Positions 39,991 to 62,705 of a DNA stretch of 64,000 nt are shown here, in pieces. This DNA is from Sedimentisphaerales bacterium. GTDB taxonomy: Bacteria > Planctomycetota > Phycisphaerae > Sedimentisphaerales > SM23-30. The notes under the pieces were generated by a model that was given only the letters and a program-made list of their open reading frames with translations, was not told the DNA's origin and searched no databases. A program made the position numbers and the translations under genes. Location of the stretch: NCBI GenBank assembly GCA_963666285.1, contig OY762711.1. One strand, given 5' to 3'. The first letter of the stretch is position 1; the number at the start of each line of letters is the position of its first letter.

Positions 39991-42847
<2,857 letters not shown>

Positions 42848-52797: not shown

Positions 52798-53823
52798 TCA
52801 GGTATATCTCTTAGGAGGCCTTGTTATATTATTAAGTACTGGTACTACCAGGCCGACAAGTAATACTCCATATAATTCTGCAAAAAATACTGGCAGATAC
52901 AACCGAAAAAGAATAGCAAAAGATCCTGCCAAATATGCCGCCCAAACCTGTCCCCTAACTGTTATTGGCCGAGACGTTGTATCTAAAAACAAAACCATTG
53001 CTGAAAAAAATACATACCCTGTAAAGATTTGATAAATTATATAAGCAGTTATAACATCACCTGATAGACCGCTGGCTAGAATACTGTGATACCCATCGGA
53101 ACTCTTTATAGGCAGCAATACAATTGCCATAATAACAGCAAAAATATAAGTTGCAGGAACACGCCAGTTTAAATATCCTCGGTATATACAGTATACTCCA
53201 AATATTGAAAATATTGCCGGACTTGCGGCAATTACCGGCATATCACAACCCAGCAAACAATCCACAATTGTAGGCAATCTGTTAATAAAGATATCCTCAA
53301 TATTTAATTTCCCATCAATCATCACCAGCTTTGACAACTCAAATGAATTCATTGTCATCGCAGTTCCTGTCTGCTGCTCATACTGTCCAAAAATATTCTC
53401 CAAAATACCCCTGTCAAATAACTCGAGTATGGCAACAGAAAGCAAAACCGGATGCAGCCAATATCTTCCCATACCCTTGAAAAAGTGTTTGTATAAAACC
53501 GCAAAAGCCGTTACTAAGAGAATTATTGGCCAACCAAGCTCTGCCGGAAGAATGTAACAGGCAACCATTGCTAAAAATAGCGTATGAGCCGTCGAACCGC
53601 GATAACCGCCGCAACGGCAAAAAATAATTGTTTTTTCAAGTATAAAAGCAAATACAACCGGTATAATACACGTCATTATTGACAATTTATTACATATTAA
53701 ATTTACTCCAATACCTGATAATACAATCAAAAACAACTGAACGTATAACATCATTCGTGACGTTTCCGCTACCGGTCTAAACGGACTGCAATGGCATAAA
53801 TGAGTTCTTCTACTACTTTCCAT
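52798..53823 (-). CDS. Divergent RnfD/NqrB-family membrane protein
   Basis: SP..., LP...W, KHFFKGMG, WRVP, D..SRPIT..G, FR, TRP spacing typical of RnfD; no (S/T)GAT/ATPL FMN-attachment site. Confidence 0.75.
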   Translation of the reverse strand: MESSRRTHLCHCSPFRPVAETSRMMLYVQLFLIVLSGIGVNLICNKLSIMTCIIPVVFAFILEKTIIFCRCGGYRGSTAHTLFLAMVACYILPAELGWPIILLVTAFAVLYKHFFKGMGRYWLHPVLLSVAILELFDRGILENIFGQYEQQTGTAMTMNSFELSKLVMIDGKLNIEDIFINRLPTIVDCLLGCDMPVIAASPAIFSIFGVYCIYRGYLNWRVPATYIFAVIMAIVLLPIKSSDGYHSILASGLSGDVITAYIIYQIFTGYVFFSAMVLFLDTTSRPITVRGQVWAAYLAGSFAILFRLYLPVFFAELYGVLLVGLVVPVLNNITRPPKRYT

Positions 53824-55105
53824 CCTTAATCCTTTTTGCCATTTTTATATTTTCTAGTATTTTCAATCCTGCCGGACAGCAATAGCTGCACAAACCACAT
53901 TCCAGGCAATCAAATAAACCGTATTGTTCAGCCTTTATAAAATCTTGAAGCTCTATCAGATCGTTCAGTCTAATTGGGTCCAGAGCTGCAGGACAAAATT
54001 CAATACAGCGACCACAATTCAAACAGCGGTCCGGTGCGTTTCTGGACGATTCTTTTATAACTACATAACTCTCACAAAATGGTCCTATGACTGTTCGAGC
54101 CGGATCAACTGCTGCCCCGGTAAGACTTCTACCTGCAACAATACATTCATAATGATTTTTGACCTGTGCTATTTCCAGTAACTCTGATACCGGTAATCCA
54201 ACCGGTACCAGGTAATGCCCCGGATTATCAACTGCATCACCACAAACTGTTACTATTCGCTCTGTCGGATTAATACCTGCTAATATCGCTCTTTCAATTA
54301 ATGCTAATGTCTGAATATCAAATACCACACTGTGTTCTGTGTCTTTTCTGCTAATTACTGACTGCCTGCACAGAGTTTGCAAGACACACTTAGGATGATA
54401 CTGGGGATATTTTTCACTTATGGGAACTGTAAGAACCTGCCAGTTATCTGGATTCTCTGTGTCAATCTCAAGCTCATTTGGATAAGCCATTATCGCAGTC
54501 TCAGCTTCGAAAAAATGTTTCATAAGAGCCAGCCCGGTATAAACTATATCAGGATAACTATTCAAAATGGCTGCCGGGGTATTAATATCCGGTTCCGGAG
54601 ATGCTGCATTAGCAATTACAATACGTATATGTTTTGATTTTAATTCACACAGCTTATCATAAAGCAAAACACCATCAGAACACACAATCCCGGTTTTGGA
54701 TATAAGTTCCAGGATATAGCTGGAATCTGTTTTTTCCGGCATCACGGATTTATTCCCATGACCTACATATATCCGTGTACAAAATGATTTGCTCGGCTTT
54801 ATACATATTGCCCGGCATTCTCCATATTTTTGTATCTGACAATATGTAAGGGATACAATCTCACCATCACATGGACTGTATATCGGTTCCGGGGAACAAG
54901 CCAGAACTTCTCCCGCTGATACCCTGCTGCCATCATTGTTCTTAATTTCCGCCGGCATGCCTTCATACTCTGGCACAGGTATAAATAAGTTGCCCGTATA
55001 ACCATCCAGCTCGGTTATCTCAAAAGATGGTATCTCCCCCAGTGGAGAAAGATATATTCCACGCGGGAAATTTCGCTCTATATTGTGACGCTTAAGAAAA
55101 TTCAA
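53813..55105 (-). CDS. Divergent RnfC-like Fe-S protein
   Basis: N-terminal barrel-sandwich (PIYSPCDG), KYPQ, ERIVTVCG, two CxxCxxCxxxCP motifs; GxGGAGFP and GGPMMG absent. Confidence 0.8.
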   Translation of the reverse strand: MNFLKRHNIERNFPRGIYLSPLGEIPSFEITELDGYTGNLFIPVPEYEGMPAEIKNNDGSRVSAGEVLACSPEPIYSPCDGEIVSLTYCQIQKYGECRAICIKPSKSFCTRIYVGHGNKSVMPEKTDSSYILELISKTGIVCSDGVLLYDKLCELKSKHIRIVIANAASPEPDINTPAAILNSYPDIVYTGLALMKHFFEAETAIMAYPNELEIDTENPDNWQVLTVPISEKYPQYHPKCVLQTLCRQSVISRKDTEHSVVFDIQTLALIERAILAGINPTERIVTVCGDAVDNPGHYLVPVGLPVSELLEIAQVKNHYECIVAGRSLTGAAVDPARTVIGPFCESYVVIKESSRNAPDRCLNCGRCIEFCPAALDPIRLNDLIELQDFIKAEQYGLFDCLECGLCSYCCPAGLKILENIKMAKRIKDGK

Positions 55106-55179: not shown

Positions 55180-56103
55180 TTATTGGTAATTTTTCAGTCT
55201 GCCATCAATTATTATCACCTTGGATTCTTGCAATAGCTTCTCCTGCAGGTCCAGTATCTGTTGATTGGACTTCTTCCGTATTACAATTTCACTCAGCTCA
55301 GTTCTCTCAAATGGTATATCAACCTTAGGTATTATTTTTTCAAGCCTGATTTTATACCAATACTGCCGACCATTATCTACAACCTGAAAAGATTCACTTA
55401 TATCTCCTGAATTAGACAAATTAAATGCCTGGTTTCGCAATGCTTCCGGAAGATGGGTGTCCTTCAAAGAAAATGCCGATACAAAACCTCCGTTTCTAAG
55501 CGAAGTTTCATCTTCGGAATATTCAAGAACTACATTATCAAAACTCTTGCCCAAAGACAGTTCTGTCTCTGCCCGTTCAATACTTCTGGCAGAACTTACT
55601 GACAAAAGCATTACAGAACGCTTCTGGCCGTATAATCGAATATATTCATCCTGTAGCTCTTCTTCTGAAACTTCTGCCGGCACCTCTATACATGCTCGAA
55701 GAATGGCCTGCTTTTTTAATATAAGATCGAACAATTCAGGTGTCAGCCCACGTTTTTTCAATACAAACGCAAATATAGCTCGCTGATCTGACTCCGGCTT
55801 ATCTGGTGCTATCTCACTAAGAAATCGTTTAAACTCATCGGCATACATCTCATCGGTCAGCACAATTCCCTTATCTGCCGCATATTGTAGCACCACCTCA
55901 AGCAGTACCATATCATCCATGACCTTACGACCATAAGCTCGCAATACCAGATCGTCCAGCTCATGCTGGGCGATAAATTTCCCATTTACTGCCGCACAAG
56001 ATTTTACCGTGGGTGTATCCAAAATACCGGCTCTATTACTGCCAACGTTATCACAGCCGACTATGAAAACTAACATTAAAAATAAATAATATCGAATATT
56101 CAT
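55180..56103 (-). CDS. PpiC/PrsA-type peptidyl-prolyl isomerase lipoprotein
   Basis: Lipobox IVGC; GKSFD...EYSED...NGG...AFNL..GDIS parvulin pattern. Confidence 0.75.
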   Translation of the reverse strand: MNIRYYLFLMLVFIVGCDNVGSNRAGILDTPTVKSCAAVNGKFIAQHELDDLVLRAYGRKVMDDMVLLEVVLQYAADKGIVLTDEMYADEFKRFLSEIAPDKPESDQRAIFAFVLKKRGLTPELFDLILKKQAILRACIEVPAEVSEEELQDEYIRLYGQKRSVMLLSVSSARSIERAETELSLGKSFDNVVLEYSEDETSLRNGGFVSAFSLKDTHLPEALRNQAFNLSNSGDISESFQVVDNGRQYWYKIRLEKIIPKVDIPFERTELSEIVIRKKSNQQILDLQEKLLQESKVIIIDGRLKNYQ

Positions 56104-56107
56104 AAAA

Positions 56108-56356
56108 TTATTCTTCAACTTCTGAAGCAACTACTGCTTTTTTTGTTTCATATCTTCTAATTGATGCTCTATAACTACTTACTGCTGCAAATATGCCGCA
56201 AGATAAGCTTATTACCGCTCCTGCATTAATAGTAATTAAACCTAACGGAATTGGTATACTTGCTAATGGCCTGAATATTGACATAAAAACACCCACTAAC
56301 AAAGTCGTCAGAATAAACATTACTATTGCACCCACAACACCTATCACATATCTCAT
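56108..56356 (-). CDS. Small two-TM membrane protein
   Basis: 82 aa, two hydrophobic helices, tightly packed in the operon. Confidence 0.7.
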   Translation of the reverse strand: MRYVIGVVGAIVMFILTTLLVGVFMSIFRPLASIPIPLGLITINAGAVISLSCGIFAAVSSYRASIRRYETKKAVVASEVEE

Positions 56357-56369
56357 AATATATCCTGAT

Positions 56370-57482
56370 TTATACTTGTCTAAACGGATCTTTATCTTTT
56401 GTACTTACAAAAGCGTCCAGCTGTTTGAATTCTTCCTTTATCTGCCTGGCAATACGTTTCAGGATAATTCGCTCTGAATTACTATGGCTAGTACAGATTG
56501 TCGTTACCCCCGCCGCCTGAAGCTGCAGTGCATCATGATGCTTCAACTCGCCGGTCATAAAGAAATCACAACCTGTCGCTATTACATCACCTATCAGGCA
56601 TCCGCATGAACCGGCTCCGACTGCTGCTTTTGTTACCTTTGCCGTTGCTGAACCGATCAATCCAACGCTTTCTATTTTAAGTTGCCTTTTCACTTCAGTA
56701 ATAAGCTCAGCTGCTTTTACAGGCTTGGCCAACTCGCCAAATCTTCCCAAACCATGACTAGCGTTCTGTATCAGGGGGTAGACATCATATGCTACTTCTT
56801 CATAACTGTGAGCTGCCTCCATCGCACCTAAAACTTCATTCAGCCTGTCTTTAGGCACTATTGTTTCCAGGCGATACTCATTTACTTCCTCAAAGCTGCC
56901 CGGCTTACCTATCGATGGTTTGCTTGCCAAACCGCAATTAAAGGTACCTGTTCCGTCAACCCGGTAACTGCATTTGGTATATTTGGCATTCTCACCGATC
57001 ACACCGGCCCCCGCACCAAACATCGCTTCACTGACAGTCTCAAACTCATTTACTGGCACAAATACCACCACCTTATAATAACTGGATTCAACATGAGCGG
57101 CTTTCGCCAGTGGTTTTGGTTCTACAATTCCAATTATCCCGGCAAGCAAATCATTAATCCCGCCCTCTGCCATATCCAACGCTGTATGCATCGAATAAAT
57201 GGCCATACCATTTCGAATCACATCATATAACAGCGGCGATGTGCCCCTGCCTGGCAAAACACGTTTTATCGCACTGAATATTGGTGGATGATATGCCAGT
57301 ATCAAATCAACCTTCTTTTGTTTTGCTTCCTCAAGTACTTCTGTCGTCAGGTCAATAGTCAAAATCACATTTTTAATCTTCTGCTCTGGGTCACCTGTCA
57401 AAAGGCCCACATTATCCCAATCTTCTGCTAACTCCAGGGGAGCTATTTTTTGTAAAAAAGGTAATATTTCCACTAATTTCAT
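56370..57482 (-). CDS. Nif3-like dinuclear metal-centre protein with PII-like insertion
   Basis: AEDWDNVGL, YHP, HTALD, GAGVIG, AHSYEEVAYD, TGELKHH, HSNSE. Confidence 0.92.
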   Translation of the reverse strand: MKLVEILPFLQKIAPLELAEDWDNVGLLTGDPEQKIKNVILTIDLTTEVLEEAKQKKVDLILAYHPPIFSAIKRVLPGRGTSPLLYDVIRNGMAIYSMHTALDMAEGGINDLLAGIIGIVEPKPLAKAAHVESSYYKVVVFVPVNEFETVSEAMFGAGAGVIGENAKYTKCSYRVDGTGTFNCGLASKPSIGKPGSFEEVNEYRLETIVPKDRLNEVLGAMEAAHSYEEVAYDVYPLIQNASHGLGRFGELAKPVKAAELITEVKRQLKIESVGLIGSATAKVTKAAVGAGSCGCLIGDVIATGCDFFMTGELKHHDALQLQAAGVTTICTSHSNSERIILKRIARQIKEEFKQLDAFVSTKDKDPFRQV

Positions 57483-57525: not shown

Positions 57526-57628
57526 TTTAGAGCACTCCTATTTCTGATGAAGTCAGCCGAAACCGCAACAGGCAAAAAGCGAACTCACCACAAAGTGATG
57601 CGAAGCATAAAAATTAAATTGCTCTAAA
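57526..57628. repeat. ~103-bp element bounded by inverted repeats (possible MITE)
   Basis: tttagagca (57526-57534) / tgctctaaa (57620-57628), with imperfect extension inward and outward; single copy in the window. Confidence 0.35.
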
Positions 57629-57889: not shown

Positions 57890-58687
57890 ATGCGTATCAT
57901 TTTGCCAATTAAACAGGTACCGGAAACTCGCAAAGTTCGGATGGACGAAAAAACTGGAACGGTTATAAGGGAAGGCGTTGAGTCAATCATAAACCCACTT
58001 GACTTATATTCCATCGAATTTGCCTTGAAAATTAAAGAACATATTAAATGCGAGATAATCGGAATTAGTATGGGACCTGAAAAAGCTGAAGTTGCTCTCA
58101 AAGAAGCAATCGCTATGGGTATTGACTCTGCTAGATTAATTAGCGACCGGGCTTTTGCCGGCAGTGACACCTGGGCAACCAGCTATGTTCTGTATAAAGC
58201 AATTCAAAAAATTGGTAATGTTGATCTGGTTATCTGCGGTGAAAGAGCCACTGATGGCGACACAGGTCAGGTTGGCCCCGGAATCGCCGCTTTTATGGAT
58301 ATTCCGGTTGTAACCTATGTCAGTAGCTTAAATAATATCTGTCCTGAATATTGCACTATCGACCGAACTATTGAACATGGTCACGAAACACTCAAAACTG
58401 AATTCCCGGCGGTTCTGACTGTTGTTAAGGAAATTGGCGAGCCGAGACTTCCTACCCTTAAAGGAAAAATACAAGTCAAAAATACTGTTATTCCGCACTG
58501 GAACCTAAACGACCTTGGAATCGAAGCAAACAAAGTCGGGCTGAAAGGCTCACCGACTCGGGTGATGAAAATATTTAGGCCGCAGGTTACCCGTGAATGC
58601 AAACTGCTTTATGCCGACGATGAACCCAAAATGGAATCTACCGTGAACCGGCTGGCTAAAAGTATTAGAGATATGGAGTTGTTTTAA
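57890..58687 (+). CDS. etfB: Electron transfer flavoprotein beta subunit
   Basis: KQVP, NPLD, SMGP, DRAFAGSDT, ATDGDTGQVGP, GLKGSPT. Confidence 0.95.
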   Translation: MRIILPIKQVPETRKVRMDEKTGTVIREGVESIINPLDLYSIEFALKIKEHIKCEIIGISMGPEKAEVALKEAIAMGIDSARLISDRAFAGSDTWATSYVLYKAIQKIGNVDLVICGERATDGDTGQVGPGIAAFMDIPVVTYVSSLNNICPEYCTIDRTIEHGHETLKTEFPAVLTVVKEIGEPRLPTLKGKIQVKNTVIPHWNLNDLGIEANKVGLKGSPTRVMKIFRPQVTRECKLLYADDEPKMESTVNRLAKSIRDMELF

Positions 58688-58688
58688 T

Positions 58689-59690
58689 ATGACCGCGGTA
58701 AATGCCGACATTTGGATATTAGCAGAACAATCCCAGGGGATAATTCAGCGTGTCACTTTTGAACTTATAACTCGTGGATTGAAACTGTCTGCAAAACGGA
58801 ATTGTAAACTGTGTGTTATGCTCTTTGGCCATGGAATCTCCGACCAGGATTTACAGGACTTAATCGACCGGGGAGCAAACAAAATCGTTTATTTAGAACA
58901 TACCGACTTGAAAGATTTCTTAATTGAACCGTTTTCCGATGCTATGTGCGGTATTATCAGCCAATATAATCCTGAAGTTATTCTCGCCGGGGCAACCACA
59001 ACCGGAAGAACACTCATGCCGTATGTGGCAATTAAAGTCAATACCGGACTGACCGCCGATTGCACCTCGCTTGACATTGAGCCGGAAACAGGCAACCTGA
59101 TTCAGACACGCCCTGCTATCGGCGGCAATATTATGGCATCTATCCTGACACCAGAACATCGCCCGCAGATGGCAACGGTTCGTCCCAGGTCTACTAGCTC
59201 CGCAGAAAACAATGGACCTCGAATAGGTGAAATCATCAAAACTTCACCTGAAAAACTAACCTCAAGCCGGCTGACGTTAGTTAAATTTTCGCCATTTGAA
59301 GATAAAATTAATATTTCCGATGCTGATATTGTCGTTACTGTCGGCAGAGGTATCAAGAAAAAAGAAAATCTGTCTATTATATATGATCTGGCAGAAACTC
59401 TTAACGCTGCTATTGGTGCTACCAGGGAAGTAGTCGATCGCGACTGGCTCAGTTATTCTCACCAGGTTGGACTCAGCGGGCACACCATATCACCTAAACT
59501 TTATATCGGCATAGGACTTTCCGGCAGTATACAGCATATTGCCGGCATGCAGACATCGGAAAAAATAATTGCTATAAATAATGATCCTGATGCCCAGATT
59601 TTCAAGCTGGCCGACTATGGCATAGTAGGCGATCTATTCGAAATAGTGCCTTTACTCACCCAAAAGCTGAGGGACGGGGCAAAACTATGA
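58689..59690 (+). CDS. etfA: Electron transfer flavoprotein alpha subunit
   Basis: TGLTADCT, QTRPAIGGNIMA, RPQMATVRP, QVGLSG, SGSIQH, AINND. Confidence 0.95.
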   Translation: MTAVNADIWILAEQSQGIIQRVTFELITRGLKLSAKRNCKLCVMLFGHGISDQDLQDLIDRGANKIVYLEHTDLKDFLIEPFSDAMCGIISQYNPEVILAGATTTGRTLMPYVAIKVNTGLTADCTSLDIEPETGNLIQTRPAIGGNIMASILTPEHRPQMATVRPRSTSSAENNGPRIGEIIKTSPEKLTSSRLTLVKFSPFEDKINISDADIVVTVGRGIKKKENLSIIYDLAETLNAAIGATREVVDRDWLSYSHQVGLSGHTISPKLYIGIGLSGSIQHIAGMQTSEKIIAINNDPDAQIFKLADYGIVGDLFEIVPLLTQKLRDGAKL

Positions 59691-61123
59691 TAAACAAAAC
59701 TAATTATAACCCTGTTACCAGTCAAATAGCTGACATGCTCGCTGAAATTGTCGGAAACAAATATGTCATCTTTGGCGATAGCCACGAACTCGAACAATAT
59801 TCCCACGACGAAATACCAGACAGAAACTATGCCAGAATGCCGGAAGTTGTTCTTCGACCTGGCACAACAGAAGAAATTGCTCAGATTATGACTCTGGCTA
59901 ACCGCGAGCTTATACCCGTCACCCCGCGTGGTGCCGGATCTGGTCTTTCAGGCGGTGCTGTCCCGGTCCACGGCGGAATTGTTCTGCTCACTGACAGGAT
60001 GAACTCTATTATCGAGTTTGACAAAGATAATATGATGATCACCGTTGAGCCTGGCATGATCACAAACGAGATTAATGAATATCTTGAAGAATTCGGGCTT
60101 TTCTTTGCCGGATATCCGATGAGCGGAGAAACTTGCTATATCGGCGGCAACGTCGCTGAAAATGCTGGCGGTGGCAAGGCTGTCAAATATGGCGTCACCG
60201 GCAGATATATCCTGGGGCTGGAAATTGTTACCCCGGTCGGGAAAGTCATCCGGCTCGGCGGAAAACTCATCAAGGACGTTGCCGGATATAATCTGATCGG
60301 ATTAATTACAGGATCGGAAGGAACCCTGGCTGTTATCACCAAAATAACACTCAAACTCATGCCGCTTCCCAAACACCAGGTTGACCTGCTATGCCTGTTC
60401 AATACCTCACAAGATGCTATTCAAACCGTGCCAAAGATAATGACAGAATGCGGTATCATCCCAACAGCAATTGAATTTATGGATAGAAATGCCGTTCAGG
60501 CTGCCTGTCAATATCTGAACGAATCTATTCCCTACCATCAGGCAGGAGCTATGCTTATTATCACTGTTGACGGCAGCAACTCACAGCAGGTTGAAACCGA
60601 ATACGAACTAATTGGCAAGCTTTGCGAAAAATACGGAGCGATTGAGGTTTACGTTGCCGATAACCCGACCACTTCGGAAAGAATCTGGAAAATACGAAGA
60701 AATATCGGGGAAGCTTATAATATTATTAGTAAAAGGCAAAGTAACGAGGATATCGCTGTCCCCCCTGCCTCTATCCCGCAAATGGTTACTATTCTTGGTA
60801 ATTTATCCCAAAAATATAATGTGATGATACCTTGTTTCGGTCATGCCGGTGATGGTAACCTGCATGCCAGGATCGTCTCTGATCCTCAATGGTCCGATGA
60901 AAAATGGTACCAGATTCTTCCACAATTGCTGGATGAACTTTATGACGAAACTGCTCGACTTGGCGGCACTATCTCAGGAGAGCATGGTATCGGCCATAAA
61001 CGTAAAGGATCCCTGGCAAAAGTAGCCGATTCGAATTATCTCGATATTCTCCGTTCAATTAAAATGGCATTTGACCCAAACAATATATTGAACCCCGGCA
61101 AAATCTTTGACATGAAACAATAG
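59687..61123 (+). CDS. FAD-linked oxidoreductase (GlcD/LctD family; lactate/glycolate dehydrogenase-like)
   Basis: PRGAGSGLSGG, IGGNVAENAGG, KYG, GSEGTL, GHAGDGNLH, SGEHGIG, NPGK. Confidence 0.92.
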   Translation: MINKTNYNPVTSQIADMLAEIVGNKYVIFGDSHELEQYSHDEIPDRNYARMPEVVLRPGTTEEIAQIMTLANRELIPVTPRGAGSGLSGGAVPVHGGIVLLTDRMNSIIEFDKDNMMITVEPGMITNEINEYLEEFGLFFAGYPMSGETCYIGGNVAENAGGGKAVKYGVTGRYILGLEIVTPVGKVIRLGGKLIKDVAGYNLIGLITGSEGTLAVITKITLKLMPLPKHQVDLLCLFNTSQDAIQTVPKIMTECGIIPTAIEFMDRNAVQAACQYLNESIPYHQAGAMLIITVDGSNSQQVETEYELIGKLCEKYGAIEVYVADNPTTSERIWKIRRNIGEAYNIISKRQSNEDIAVPPASIPQMVTILGNLSQKYNVMIPCFGHAGDGNLHARIVSDPQWSDEKWYQILPQLLDELYDETARLGGTISGEHGIGHKRKGSLAKVADSNYLDILRSIKMAFDPNNILNPGKIFDMKQ

Positions 61124-61143
61124 CAAATATAAGGAATACACAA

Positions 61144-62184
61144 ATGAAAGCAATGCAGCTTACCGGCATAAACCAGATGAAAATGCTTGATGTCCCTGAT
61201 CCGGAAATAGAAAATGATACTGATGTATTAATAAAGATGCTTTGTGTAGGCGTTTGCGGCAGCGATATTCACTATTTTGAAACAGGAAAAATTGGCAGTC
61301 AGGTTGTTGAATACCCATACACTGTCGGCCATGAAGGTGCCGGTGAAGTAGTCGCTGTTGGCAAAGCTGTTACACATGTCAAACCCGGTGACCGCATAGC
61401 TGTTGAACCGGCGATGCCTTGCTGGCAATGTGACCAATGCAAAGCTGGCAGGCACAACACCTGTCGCAAATTGAAATTCCTCGGCTGCCCCGGTCAGGCC
61501 GAAGGCTGCCTGAGCGAATACCTGGTTATGCCGGAAACCAGCTGCTTCAAAATTAGCGACAATCTCTCTATGCAGGAAGCTGCCCTTTCTGAACCGCTCG
61601 CTATTGGTGTTTATGCTGTCAAACAGTCAATTCCTATGCCAAAAGCCAAAATCGGTGTTCTCGGCACCGGCCCAATTGGGTTCAGCGTCTTTTTGCCGGC
61701 TTTAGCTCAAGGTGCTGCAAAAATATATGCAACAGATAAGATAGATGCCCGCTTAAAACTTGCCCAAAAAGCAGGTGTCTCTTGGACCGGCAACCCCAAA
61801 AAAAGCGATATCGTCGAAGAAATACTATCACGAGAACCACTTGGACTTGATGTTGTTTTTGACTGCTGCGGTGATCAGGAAGCACTGGATCAGGCAATTG
61901 AGTTACTCAAACCTGGCGGCAAGCTCATGATTATCGGTATCCCCAGATTCGATCGGTTCGCTTTCCCGGTTGACCTGCTTCGCCGCAAGGAATTATGTCT
62001 GCAAAACGTTCGCAGACAATGCGATTGCGTAGAAGATGCCTTGGCTATGATCGATCGCAAAGATTTCAATGTCAATATTATGGCCACCCACCACTTCAAC
62101 TTCGAACATACTCAAGAAGCCTTCGACTTGGTGGCAGGTTACAAAGACGGTGTACTTAAAGCTATGATCCATTTTGACCAATAA
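61144..62184 (+). CDS. Zinc-dependent MDR dehydrogenase (sorbitol/iditol-like)
   Basis: GVCGSD, GHE, CxxCxxC...C, GTGPIG. Confidence 0.9.
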   Translation: MKAMQLTGINQMKMLDVPDPEIENDTDVLIKMLCVGVCGSDIHYFETGKIGSQVVEYPYTVGHEGAGEVVAVGKAVTHVKPGDRIAVEPAMPCWQCDQCKAGRHNTCRKLKFLGCPGQAEGCLSEYLVMPETSCFKISDNLSMQEAALSEPLAIGVYAVKQSIPMPKAKIGVLGTGPIGFSVFLPALAQGAAKIYATDKIDARLKLAQKAGVSWTGNPKKSDIVEEILSREPLGLDVVFDCCGDQEALDQAIELLKPGGKLMIIGIPRFDRFAFPVDLLRRKELCLQNVRRQCDCVEDALAMIDRKDFNVNIMATHHFNFEHTQEAFDLVAGYKDGVLKAMIHFDQ

Positions 62185-62201
62185 ACACTACTAATAAATC
62201 A

Positions 62202-62705
62202 ATGTTAAAAAGTTTCGCCCCATTGGAAAACAAGAATTGCAGAATACTTATTCTTGGCACTATGCCCAGTGTAGAATCACTGGCAAAGCAGCAGTATTAC
62301 GGTTTCAAATACAATGCTTTCTGGCCGATTATGGGCAATTTACTGAATTTCGATCCGGAAATACCTTATAACGAGCGTTGCAATTACCTTCCCCAGCACG
62401 GCATCGCTCTTTGGGATGTACTCAAAAACTGCCGGCGCAAAGGTAGTCTCGACAGTAATATCACAGACGAAATCCCAAACGACTATCTTTCTTTCTTAAA
62501 CCAACACCCCAAAATTCACTCCGTATTCTTCAATGGCGGCCCAGCTGAAAAACTTTTCAAAAAGCACATAGCCCCTGTTATCCCGAAACATATAGACAAA
62601 CTGCACTTCCATCGTCTGCCATCAACCTCACCTGCCAATGCCAGGCTAAATTTTGAGCAGAAACTGAAGTACTGGAGCATCATTCTCAATAAAATAAACC
62701 TCTAA
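62202..62705 (+). CDS. UDG-superfamily DNA-deoxyinosine glycosylase-like protein
   Basis: LILGTMPS, YY...NAFW, LWDV, GSLDS, FNG, LPSTSPAN. Confidence 0.85.
   Translation: MLKSFAPLENKNCRILILGTMPSVESLAKQQYYGFKYNAFWPIMGNLLNFDPEIPYNERCNYLPQHGIALWDVLKNCRRKGSLDSNITDEIPNDYLSFLNQHPKIHSVFFNGGPAEKLFKKHIAPVIPKHIDKLHFHRLPSTSPANARLNFEQKLKYWSIILNKINL

Follow-up and report, generated by a model that had tools for sequence, protein, structure and literature searches.

The stretch analysed here (the window) comprises 64,000 nucleotides of contig OY762711.1 (assembly GCA_963666285.1) of a Sedimentisphaerales bacterium of the class Phycisphaerae, and it carries two genes, here called C' and D', whose products resemble the RnfC and RnfD subunits of the Rnf respiratory complex. 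The gene order is nif3, an open reading frame (ORF) of 82 amino acids, a PpiC-like lipoprotein gene, and then C' and D'. The features of the pair are listed below, where "stripped" refers to homologues that, like C' and D', have lost the flavin motifs.

52798..53823, minus strand: D', RnfD-like membrane subunit of 341 amino acids and about 10 helices, without the Thr that attaches flavin mononucleotide (FMN) and with an apparently remodelled riboflavin pocket
53813..55105, minus strand: C', RnfC-like subunit of 430 amino acids, with the RnfC fold and two [4Fe-4S] motifs, FMN/NADH motifs lost
53990..54025, minus strand: first [4Fe-4S] motif, CLNCGRCIEFCP, C' residues 361-372, from motif reading, with Cys in 59/60 stripped homologues
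53873..53908, minus strand: second [4Fe-4S] motif, CLECGLCSYCCP, C' residues 400-411, from motif reading
54665..54691, minus strand: eroded GxxGxGGAxFP loop, GIVCSDGVL, C' residues 139-147, from motif comparison
53584..53586, minus strand: His80 of D', a gained family signature, in the column of Vibrio cholerae NqrB G158
53452..53454, minus strand: His124 of D', in the column of the riboflavin ligand A. woodii N123 / NqrB N203
52981..52983, minus strand: Asp281 of D', in the column of the riboflavin ligand A. woodii D249 / NqrB D346

As claimed in an earlier, sequence-only reading of this DNA, C' and D' are overlapping RnfC/RnfD-type ORFs, both uninterrupted; the overlap is 11 nucleotides, C' starts with TTG, and the segment 52700-57568 is identical in one public contig, possibly from the source sample itself. 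The motifs quoted in that reading are all present as quoted: C' has NAASPEP at residue 166, YPQYHP at 233 and AGRSLTG at 324 besides GIVCSDGVL at 139, with both [4Fe-4S] motifs intact, and D' has KGMGRY at residue 116 and no [ST]GA[ST] or [AP][TS]P[LM] word. The listed changes hold for the window, but those in YPQG and GGxG are not family-wide, since most same-family orthologues keep both (for KYPQG, the Gly is found in 13/17). The roles of NuoF-type residues in FMN/NADH binding are known from complex I, and C' does not carry the corresponding set of motifs (GxxGxGGAxFP, NxxExEP, YPxGxE, the Asn of SNVGT, GGPMMG) by which an RnfC can be recognized.

Against the RnfC profile TIGR01945, C' scored 174.5 bits, under the curated cut-off of 245.95, the canonical rnfC of the same genome scoring 491.8; to canonical subunits C' has 24% identity. 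D' scored 34.8 bits against TIGR01946 (cut-off 207) and passed PF03116 (85.5 bits, cut-off 27.7), which is its only domain, with no PF00175 fusion. With the NqrA profile TIGR01936 C' reached 33.5 bits (cut-off 321), and no NqrB-type N-terminal extension, which holds the quinone helices, was found in D'. The best structural match of the C' AlphaFold model (predicted local distance difference test, pLDDT, 88.6) was solved RnfC (8ahx_C, E 3e-31, template modelling (TM) score 0.82), and that of the D' model (pLDDT 85.1) was solved RnfD (9eri_D, E 4e-9, TM 0.70). Judged by its sequence, the pair is not RnfC/RnfD by cut-off or cofactor motifs, nor NqrA/NqrB, nor a two-subunit Nqr/Rnf-like system. 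Named homologues of both proteins are from Sedimentisphaerales and Phycisphaerae, and annotation pipelines label genes of this type rnfC and rnfD, labels that would lead to an Rnf pump being wrongly assigned to many Phycisphaerae genomes.

No rnfG, rnfE, rnfA or rnfB was found in the window (3.81-3.87 Mb of the genome), in agreement with the sequence-only reading, nor were nqr genes found there; the genome's PF02508, PF04205 and rnfB matches all lie elsewhere, at 1.93, 4.29 and 2.87 Mb, with PF04205 genes at 1.93 and 4.30 Mb. That reading had left room for a separate full Rnf, and the genome does encode one, complete and motif-intact, split over three loci of contig C1, besides an Nqr-like operon:

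G000 C1:3092902-3094263: canonical rnfC, standing alone, motifs intact, 491.8 bits
G000 C1:1930908-1934193: rnfD-G-E-A
G000 C1:2869519-2870406: rnfB
G000 C1:4293565-4299360: Nqr-like operon (L003, L010)

Because the genome has a complete Rnf elsewhere, the C'D' pair of the window is additional to it. A solitary rnfC is also seen in three other genomes of the window's genus, and other genera of the family keep rnfCDGEAB together. The NqrA of the Nqr-like operon retains two [4Fe-4S] motifs and has the form of an intermediate from Rnf to NQR.

A survey of 40 relatives (24 genomes of the same family and 16 of the order's other families) detected C' orthologues of 32-56% identity in 19/24 same-family genomes, D' in 19/24 and both in 18; no C'D' orthologues were found in the 16 genomes of other families, and the weaker matches that were fetched proved to be canonical RnfC, mostly inside whole rnfCDGEAB operons. 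In G001 the two genes are 0.3 Mb apart and both intact, and in two near-complete same-family genomes the pair is cleanly deleted, so that PpiC directly adjoins scpB. The ratio of nonsynonymous to synonymous substitution rates (dN/dS) was calculated by NG86 with Jukes-Cantor, the window's own genes having no close enough relative. The stripped genes gave 0.10-0.27 in 10/10 within-genus comparisons, compared with 0.046 for a working RnfC and 0.12-0.21 for PpiC; the cofactor-complete pair of family f10 gave 0.34 and 0.47, at low dS. The sequence-only reading had named two outcomes that would speak against it, absent or decaying homologues and a pair serving as the genome's only rnfC/rnfD, and neither was found, homologues being widespread and under purifying selection.

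These data bear on whether the pair is a decaying recent duplicate of the genome's own rnfC/rnfD. The low identity of C' to canonical subunits, the two clean deletions, and one locus where frameshifts interrupt the adjoining genes as well speak for a decaying copy, but the dN/dS values and the open frames across many families speak against it, and a tree forcing D' together with the family's own operon RnfD was rejected (approximately unbiased test, p-AU 7e-21, 26 rows). We consider this explanation extremely improbable and count it as refuted. At the frameshifted locus (L058, G020:C19:202000-221000) nif3, PpiC and D' are each split or frame-shifted and C' is whole, probably as a result of assembly errors. 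It is very probable that C'D' is a selected, stand-alone derivative, a conclusion much firmer than any single mechanism considered below.

For the cofactor sites, 60 stripped C rows and 68 stripped D rows were aligned with 35 and 28 cofactor-complete ones, related rows not being independent. All eight Fe-S Cys are present in 59/60 stripped C rows, the exception ending at a contig end, and a Trp has been gained in the first [4Fe-4S] motif in 48/60. The GGAxFP loop, its Lys and the Asn of SNVGT, invariant in 35/35 complete RnfC, are variable in the stripped rows, where the Glu of YPQGxE is kept in 6/60 and the Tyr-Pro before it almost always (Tyr 59/60, Pro 60/60). RnfC binds FMN as complex I does (PMC9588780). 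In the membrane subunit, the FMN word [AP][TS]P[LM] occurs in 26/28 complete RnfD and in 0/68 stripped rows, and it is missing from the window's D' too; T156 of A. woodii RnfD is the covalent FMN site (10.1101/2024.06.21.599731). The Glu of YPEG is lost as well in stripped D, and the Pro of the N-terminal arm, which in solved Rnf is buried in RnfC (PMC9588780), is kept in 68/68.

The invariance of the cluster Cys weighs on a second alternative, that of a structural scaffold, in which contacts with other proteins or a part in organising the membrane would be what preserves the pair, and the clusters only stabilise the fold. A redox-silent RnfC fold is already known in NqrA (PMC12174285), the pair evolves faster than working RnfC (dN/dS of 0.13 for D' vs 0.046), and its neighbours are housekeeping genes (scpB, PpiC, aminotransferase). 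However, NqrA lost its Cys, which are invariant here, and a Trp in C' and a His in D' have been gained; we hold a scaffold to be quite unlikely.

The fate of the riboflavin site is less simple. In NqrB, riboflavin is contacted by T162, N200, N203 and D346 (10.1101/2022.04.19.488743), and A. woodii N123 and D249 were likewise mapped as riboflavin ligands onto D' columns. The window's D' has L84, Y121, H124 and D281 at these contacts, that is, one kept, one conservative and two lost. Among the 68 stripped D rows the N203 column holds His in 33, Gln in 30 and Asn in 2, and the residue of the T162 column is kept in 27/27 rows of f9 but in 1/18 of the window's family. The position of His80, aligned to NqrB G158, precedes this column by four residues; it is His in 59/68 stripped rows and Ser in 28/28 cofactor-complete RnfD and, so placed, probably faces the riboflavin cavity. 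A periplasmic insertion with a conserved G-D and W was also gained in 59/68 stripped D and lost again in the window's genus. The sequence-only reading had proposed a selective loss of flavin chemistry with Fe-S clusters and fold kept; this stands for the NADH and FMN sites but not for the riboflavin pocket, where two of the four polar contacts are kept or conservative in the window's family, and which on alignment evidence appears remodelled rather than erased.

A third alternative is an Fe-S-gated sensor or solute channel, in which D', having lost its flavins, senses or passes a small solute by an ammonium/urea-transporter-like fold and C' acts as a redox or O2 switch. RnfD and NqrB are structurally related to ammonium/urea transporters (PMC12174285), and the next fold matches of the D' model after RnfD are to Rh, AmtB and the urea transporter UT. 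Furthermore, His80 and His/Gln124 persist even where the riboflavin Asp is lost, and the gain of the periplasmic insertion points the same way. The channel matches are nevertheless not significant (E 0.2-0.9), no recurring regulator, kinase or output domain stands beside the pair in the loci read, and both clusters, a two-step wire, are retained, so that we find this explanation rather unlikely.

His80 also figures in a proposal that the pair is a ferredoxin:quinone oxidoreductase, with electrons passing from the clusters to riboflavin and on to menaquinone at the His80 site, as NqrB reduces ubiquinone from riboflavin. The column of His80 lies between E157 and F160 of the NqrB inhibitor pocket (10.1101/2022.04.19.488743); within the order, MqnC-type matches mirror the pair (18/24 in the family vs 0/16 elsewhere), and the family's longest D' branches come from genomes without an MqnC match. 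On the other hand, neither MqnC nor MenB had a match in the window's own genome, f9 has D' in 34/35 genomes yet MqnC-type matches in 6/35 and MenB in 0/8, and in f13 the counts are 0/3 and 0/2. The quinone-pocket helices of NqrB are moreover absent from RnfD (PMC12174285), and D' has no such N-terminal extension. A scan for UbiA matched 22/22 genomes and so did not discriminate on menaquinone. Taken together, a quinone reductase seems distinctly improbable.

Beyond the order, the D' profile matched 92/251 genomes of the class at E<=1e-52. Of these, 22 belong to families f10 and f18, where the 3 loci read are cofactor-complete; at the same threshold no D' match was found in f6, f7, f8, f19 and f26. 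The broader C' profile matched 10/10 genomes of f11, 31/35 of f12, 26/35 of f14 and 5/10 of f15, and RnfA/E matches at E<=1e-50 in the same families numbered 1/10, 1/35, 0/35 and 0/10 (2/90 in total). At E<=1e-3, RnfA/E was absent from 7 chosen D' carriers (2/5 plus 5/5), two of them single-contig genomes. Adjacent stripped C-D pairs were present in 5/5 sampled f12, f15 and f21 genomes. An f14 protein matches Tepidisphaeraceae/Tepidisphaerales entries, and cultured members of these groups are aerobes. When one distant D was used for a pattern scan across named genomes, only two close relatives were reached, the other matches being at 24-40%.

Since there are carriers without an RnfA/E match, working as an Rnf member with RnfA/E/G/B is not a trait of the family. 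This distribution also bears on the possibility that the pair is an alternative or inhibitory C-D arm docking on the RnfA/E/G/B (or Nqr) core of its genome. The full Rnf and the Nqr-like operon of the window's genome agree with it, as do the f9 genomes, with RnfA/E in 33/35, and one same-family genome that lacks both the pair and any RnfD/NqrB gene. Yet 24 genomes of f11 and f14 carry both genes and have no RnfA/E match at E<=1e-50, and, its FMN Thr missing, D' would be unable to bind the covalent flavin to which RnfG passes electrons; we regard such an arm as very unlikely. The sequence-only reading had suggested a new role as dock, sensor or modulator of a true Rnf, and the data support purifying selection on the pair and a true Rnf encoded elsewhere, but modulation is unlikely as a general role because the pair persists where RnfA/E is not found.

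A library search, of which the best 150 matches among 1.84 billion representatives were considered, extended this picture. Among the 130 of these representatives with at least 320 amino acids, 46 lacked all three tested RnfD words, and His80 is found in 31 of these 46. Five natural C-D fusions of 792-856 amino acids were among the best 150; all five have two Cys motifs and lack every flavin word tested, and two of the fusion clusters have 4 and 6 members.

Several variants were noted in passing. In two f12 loci (L178:1444-2574 and L179:1345-2514) the stripped C, of 376-389 amino acids, has also lost its N-terminal barrel domain and retains both cluster motifs and an adjacent D. A strongly degenerate RnfD-like protein of G506, a genome from another class (L221:3560-4906), carries an insertion and reads RP at the FMN site; it falls with the stripped clade, its branch being long, and the 10 kb fetched contained no RnfC match. 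An RnfC-like protein of G137 (L183:1498-2799) has an intact GGAGFP and the barrel domain relocated to the C-terminus, and we presume it to resemble PduS-type proteins. G048, which already holds canonical and half-eroded rnfC copies, has a third RnfC-like gene (L177:1138-2541; 183 bits on TIGR01945) with a long branch.

The origin of the pair can be read from its synteny. The C-D pair of f10 is followed by rnfG and scpB and that of f18 is preceded by PpiC and an aminotransferase gene, all motifs being kept in both; the syntenic rnfC is the sole rnfC in two f10/f18 genomes tested. In other classes of the phylum, RnfC was present in 19/20 of the top-scoring loci fetched, with GGAxFP and GGPMMG in 19/19, and two of these loci show the full order PpiC, DapL/AlaC-like aminotransferase, rnfC, rnfD, rnfG, scpB. 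The TIGR01945 score of the syntenic RnfC declines from 502 bits in f18 and 480 in f10 to 308 in f16, 304 in f13, 220 in f9 and 174 in the window, and f16 and f13 also carry a separate canonical rnfC. Together with the trees described next, these gene orders show that C'D' goes back to an ancestral locus, PpiC-aminotransferase-rnfC-rnfD-rnfG-scpB, which other planctomycetes have in cofactor-complete form.

Trees of D were built in quick mode, with support from the SH-like approximate likelihood ratio test (SH-aLRT) only, and contain long branches. In both, the stripped proteins are united in a single clade (31 rows, support 100; 22 rows, support 92, the second tree leaving out 17 rows of the first set and adding 14). 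This clade nests among syntenic complete RnfD, apart from the operon RnfD of the window's genome; a recent local duplication of the genome's own genes was rejected by the approximately unbiased test given above. In a C tree rooted on NqrA the stripped rows fell at the base with long-branch warnings, and the D trees were relied on instead. A single origin of the stripped D clade is likely, though not proven because of the long branches. We infer that rnfG and the flavin chemistry disappeared from the native rnfCDG once the genome had a further rnf operon, and that C-D was kept for another job even after loss of the pump.

Three known systems help to place the pair. It has in common with the RnfC-RnfD arm of Rnf (RnfABCDGE; PDB 7ZC6, 8AHX, 9ERI) both folds, the C-D gene order, a pair of [4Fe-4S] motifs, the N-terminal arm of D, some of the riboflavin pocket and direct descent from a cofactor-complete rnfCDG locus, but C' is without FMN/NADH motifs and D' without the FMN Thr, no rnfG adjoins the pair, it occurs where no RnfA/E was found, and it shows the gained His80, the periplasmic insertion in most members and natural C-D fusions. 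NqrA-NqrB of Na+-NQR (the sodium-translocating NADH:quinone oxidoreductase) resembles it in tethering an RnfC-fold subunit without FMN/NAD chemistry to an RnfD-fold subunit, and according to PMC4014512 it arose from a second rnf copy with analogous stripping of NqrA. NqrA, however, lost its clusters, and NqrB keeps covalent FMN, riboflavin and the quinone-pocket helices in a six-subunit pump, whereas in the pair the clusters stay, FMN is gone and there is no core. The two-subunit Nqr/Rnf-like systems described in PMC8238504 and PMC10979944 are also partial stand-alone Rnf derivatives with an RnfD-like subunit without the flavinylated Thr; they fuse a PF00175 NAD-binding domain to the membrane subunit, have a flavinylated RnfG-like partner and occur mainly in Actinobacteria and the candidate phyla radiation (CPR). 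In contrast, the partner in the present pair is an Fe-S RnfC without an NAD site, and there is no RnfG-like gene.

In solved Rnf the electron path runs through FMN of RnfD, riboflavin, two clusters and FMN of RnfC to NAD (PMC9588780; PMC12174285). In C'D' both ends of this path are cut and the middle is kept. The most far-reaching interpretation, put forward tentatively and at somewhat less than an even balance, is of a class-wide two-protein membrane machine that would have been born when an ancestral planctomycete Rnf lost RnfG and its flavins, comprising an Fe-S head and a transporter-fold domain whose old riboflavin cavity, with the gained His, may bind a new ligand. Our best explanation of what the pair does, a little more tentative still, is a stand-alone membrane-anchored two-cluster ferredoxin relay, the remnant of the RnfC-RnfD arm. 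In such a relay C' is predicted to hold two [4Fe-4S] clusters and would be tethered by the N-terminal arm of D', as in solved Rnf. The emptied FMN/NAD cleft of C' would dock a protein carrier (ferredoxin, flavodoxin or an Fe-S enzyme), and single electrons would be exchanged between this soluble partner and a ligand that occupies the remodelled pocket of riboflavin in D'. His80, His124 and Asp281 would line one cavity beside the proximal cluster, and the periplasmic insertion would cap the old FMN site in most members. Neither NAD chemistry nor ion pumping is predicted; in the Rnf of A. woodii it is RnfA/E to which pumping is ascribed, RnfD serving in electron transfer (10.1101/2024.06.21.599731). 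The RnfC derivative already known to be cofactor-free, NqrA, has no clusters left (PMC12174285).

Several observations weigh against the relay with a membrane ligand. The NqrB D346 column is D/E in 57/57 rows of five family groups and in 0/11 rows of f12, f14, f15 and f21, and the N200 column is no longer Asn but mostly Tyr/Phe in stripped D; some members of the family may therefore have no membrane ligand. The genus of the window is itself among the most eroded, with a long D' branch, Leu at the T162 column, and neither the periplasmic insertion nor the GxGET loop. The pair is also dispensable, with two clean deletions and no orthologue found in 16/16 genomes of the order's other families, and no ferredoxin or oxidoreductase was seen to recur beside it in the loci read, where many neighbours are unannotated.

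If the proposed machine is real, the evolution of Rnf would have had a third result besides Rnf itself and NQR, one retained in pump-less lineages, with living intermediates (complete, half-eroded, stripped and fused) persisting at one locus. Such a graded natural series shows how the arm of a respiratory pump loses its cofactors yet is kept, and allows a direct test of the functions that the RnfC/NqrA and RnfD/NqrB folds have beyond flavin electron transfer. In its two-gene or fused single-chain form, without oxygen-labile partners, the system would be a simple object for biochemistry and electron cryo-microscopy. We found no description of this pair in the literature, supplements and most subscription journals being outside the coverage.

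The genes preceding the pair are the following:

55180..56130, minus strand: PpiC/PrsA-like lipoprotein, a neighbour that goes back to the ancestral rnfCDG locus and is still present in genomes with C'D' deleted
56108..56356, minus strand: two-helix membrane ORF of 82 amino acids, a local insertion without homologue in 19 orthologous loci
56370..57482, minus strand: Nif3/DUF34 gene, a family-level neighbour (13/19 loci)

PpiC recurs in 14/19 and nif3 in 13/19 orthologous loci. PpiC was considered as a subunit and rejected: it also flanks cofactor-complete rnfCDG and, because it stays where C'D' is deleted (G014, G018, G009), it is probably not a subunit of the pair. The 82-amino-acid ORF and the kinase and ETF/GlcD genes (ETF, electron-transfer flavoprotein) were found in 0/19 orthologous loci, several of which are short contigs. 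The ETF cluster, which starts 2.8 kb from the C' start and which the sequence-only reading had noted, as of bifurcating type, about 3 kb away, is not syntenic with the pair across these loci, and both it and the two-helix gene are incidental. EtfA, EtfB and the GlcD-like oxidase score under the NCBIfam cut-offs of named types. The cluster (57890-62705, plus strand) reads etfB-etfA-GlcD-like FAD oxidase followed by alcohol-dehydrogenase-like and uracil-glycosylase-like ORFs, the last two named by eye; we take it to resemble ETF-linked lactate/glycolate dehydrogenase clusters.

In the family, QueE-like and adjacent queuosine/folate-type genes often precede the cluster upstream of nif3 (L053, L059, L062, L063), and one f9 locus has a QueE-like ORF after D (L168:8581-9246); the L053 QueE, the only one scanned, fell below the cut-off. 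A radical S-adenosylmethionine enzyme would be a possible electron client. A promoter scan gave chance-level results (19 found vs 18.6 expected). Upstream of nif3, at 57539-57627, lies an 89-nucleotide dispersed repeat with 21 other BLAST matches on contig C1, of which 11 are full length and 87-98% identical. It had no Rfam match at E<=1 and contains CTGATGA and CGAAAC, with too little between them for a normal stem, words that to us recall a hammerhead core. Short ORFs at about 40100-41100 of the window look like possible shadows of a minus-strand 23S rRNA gene.

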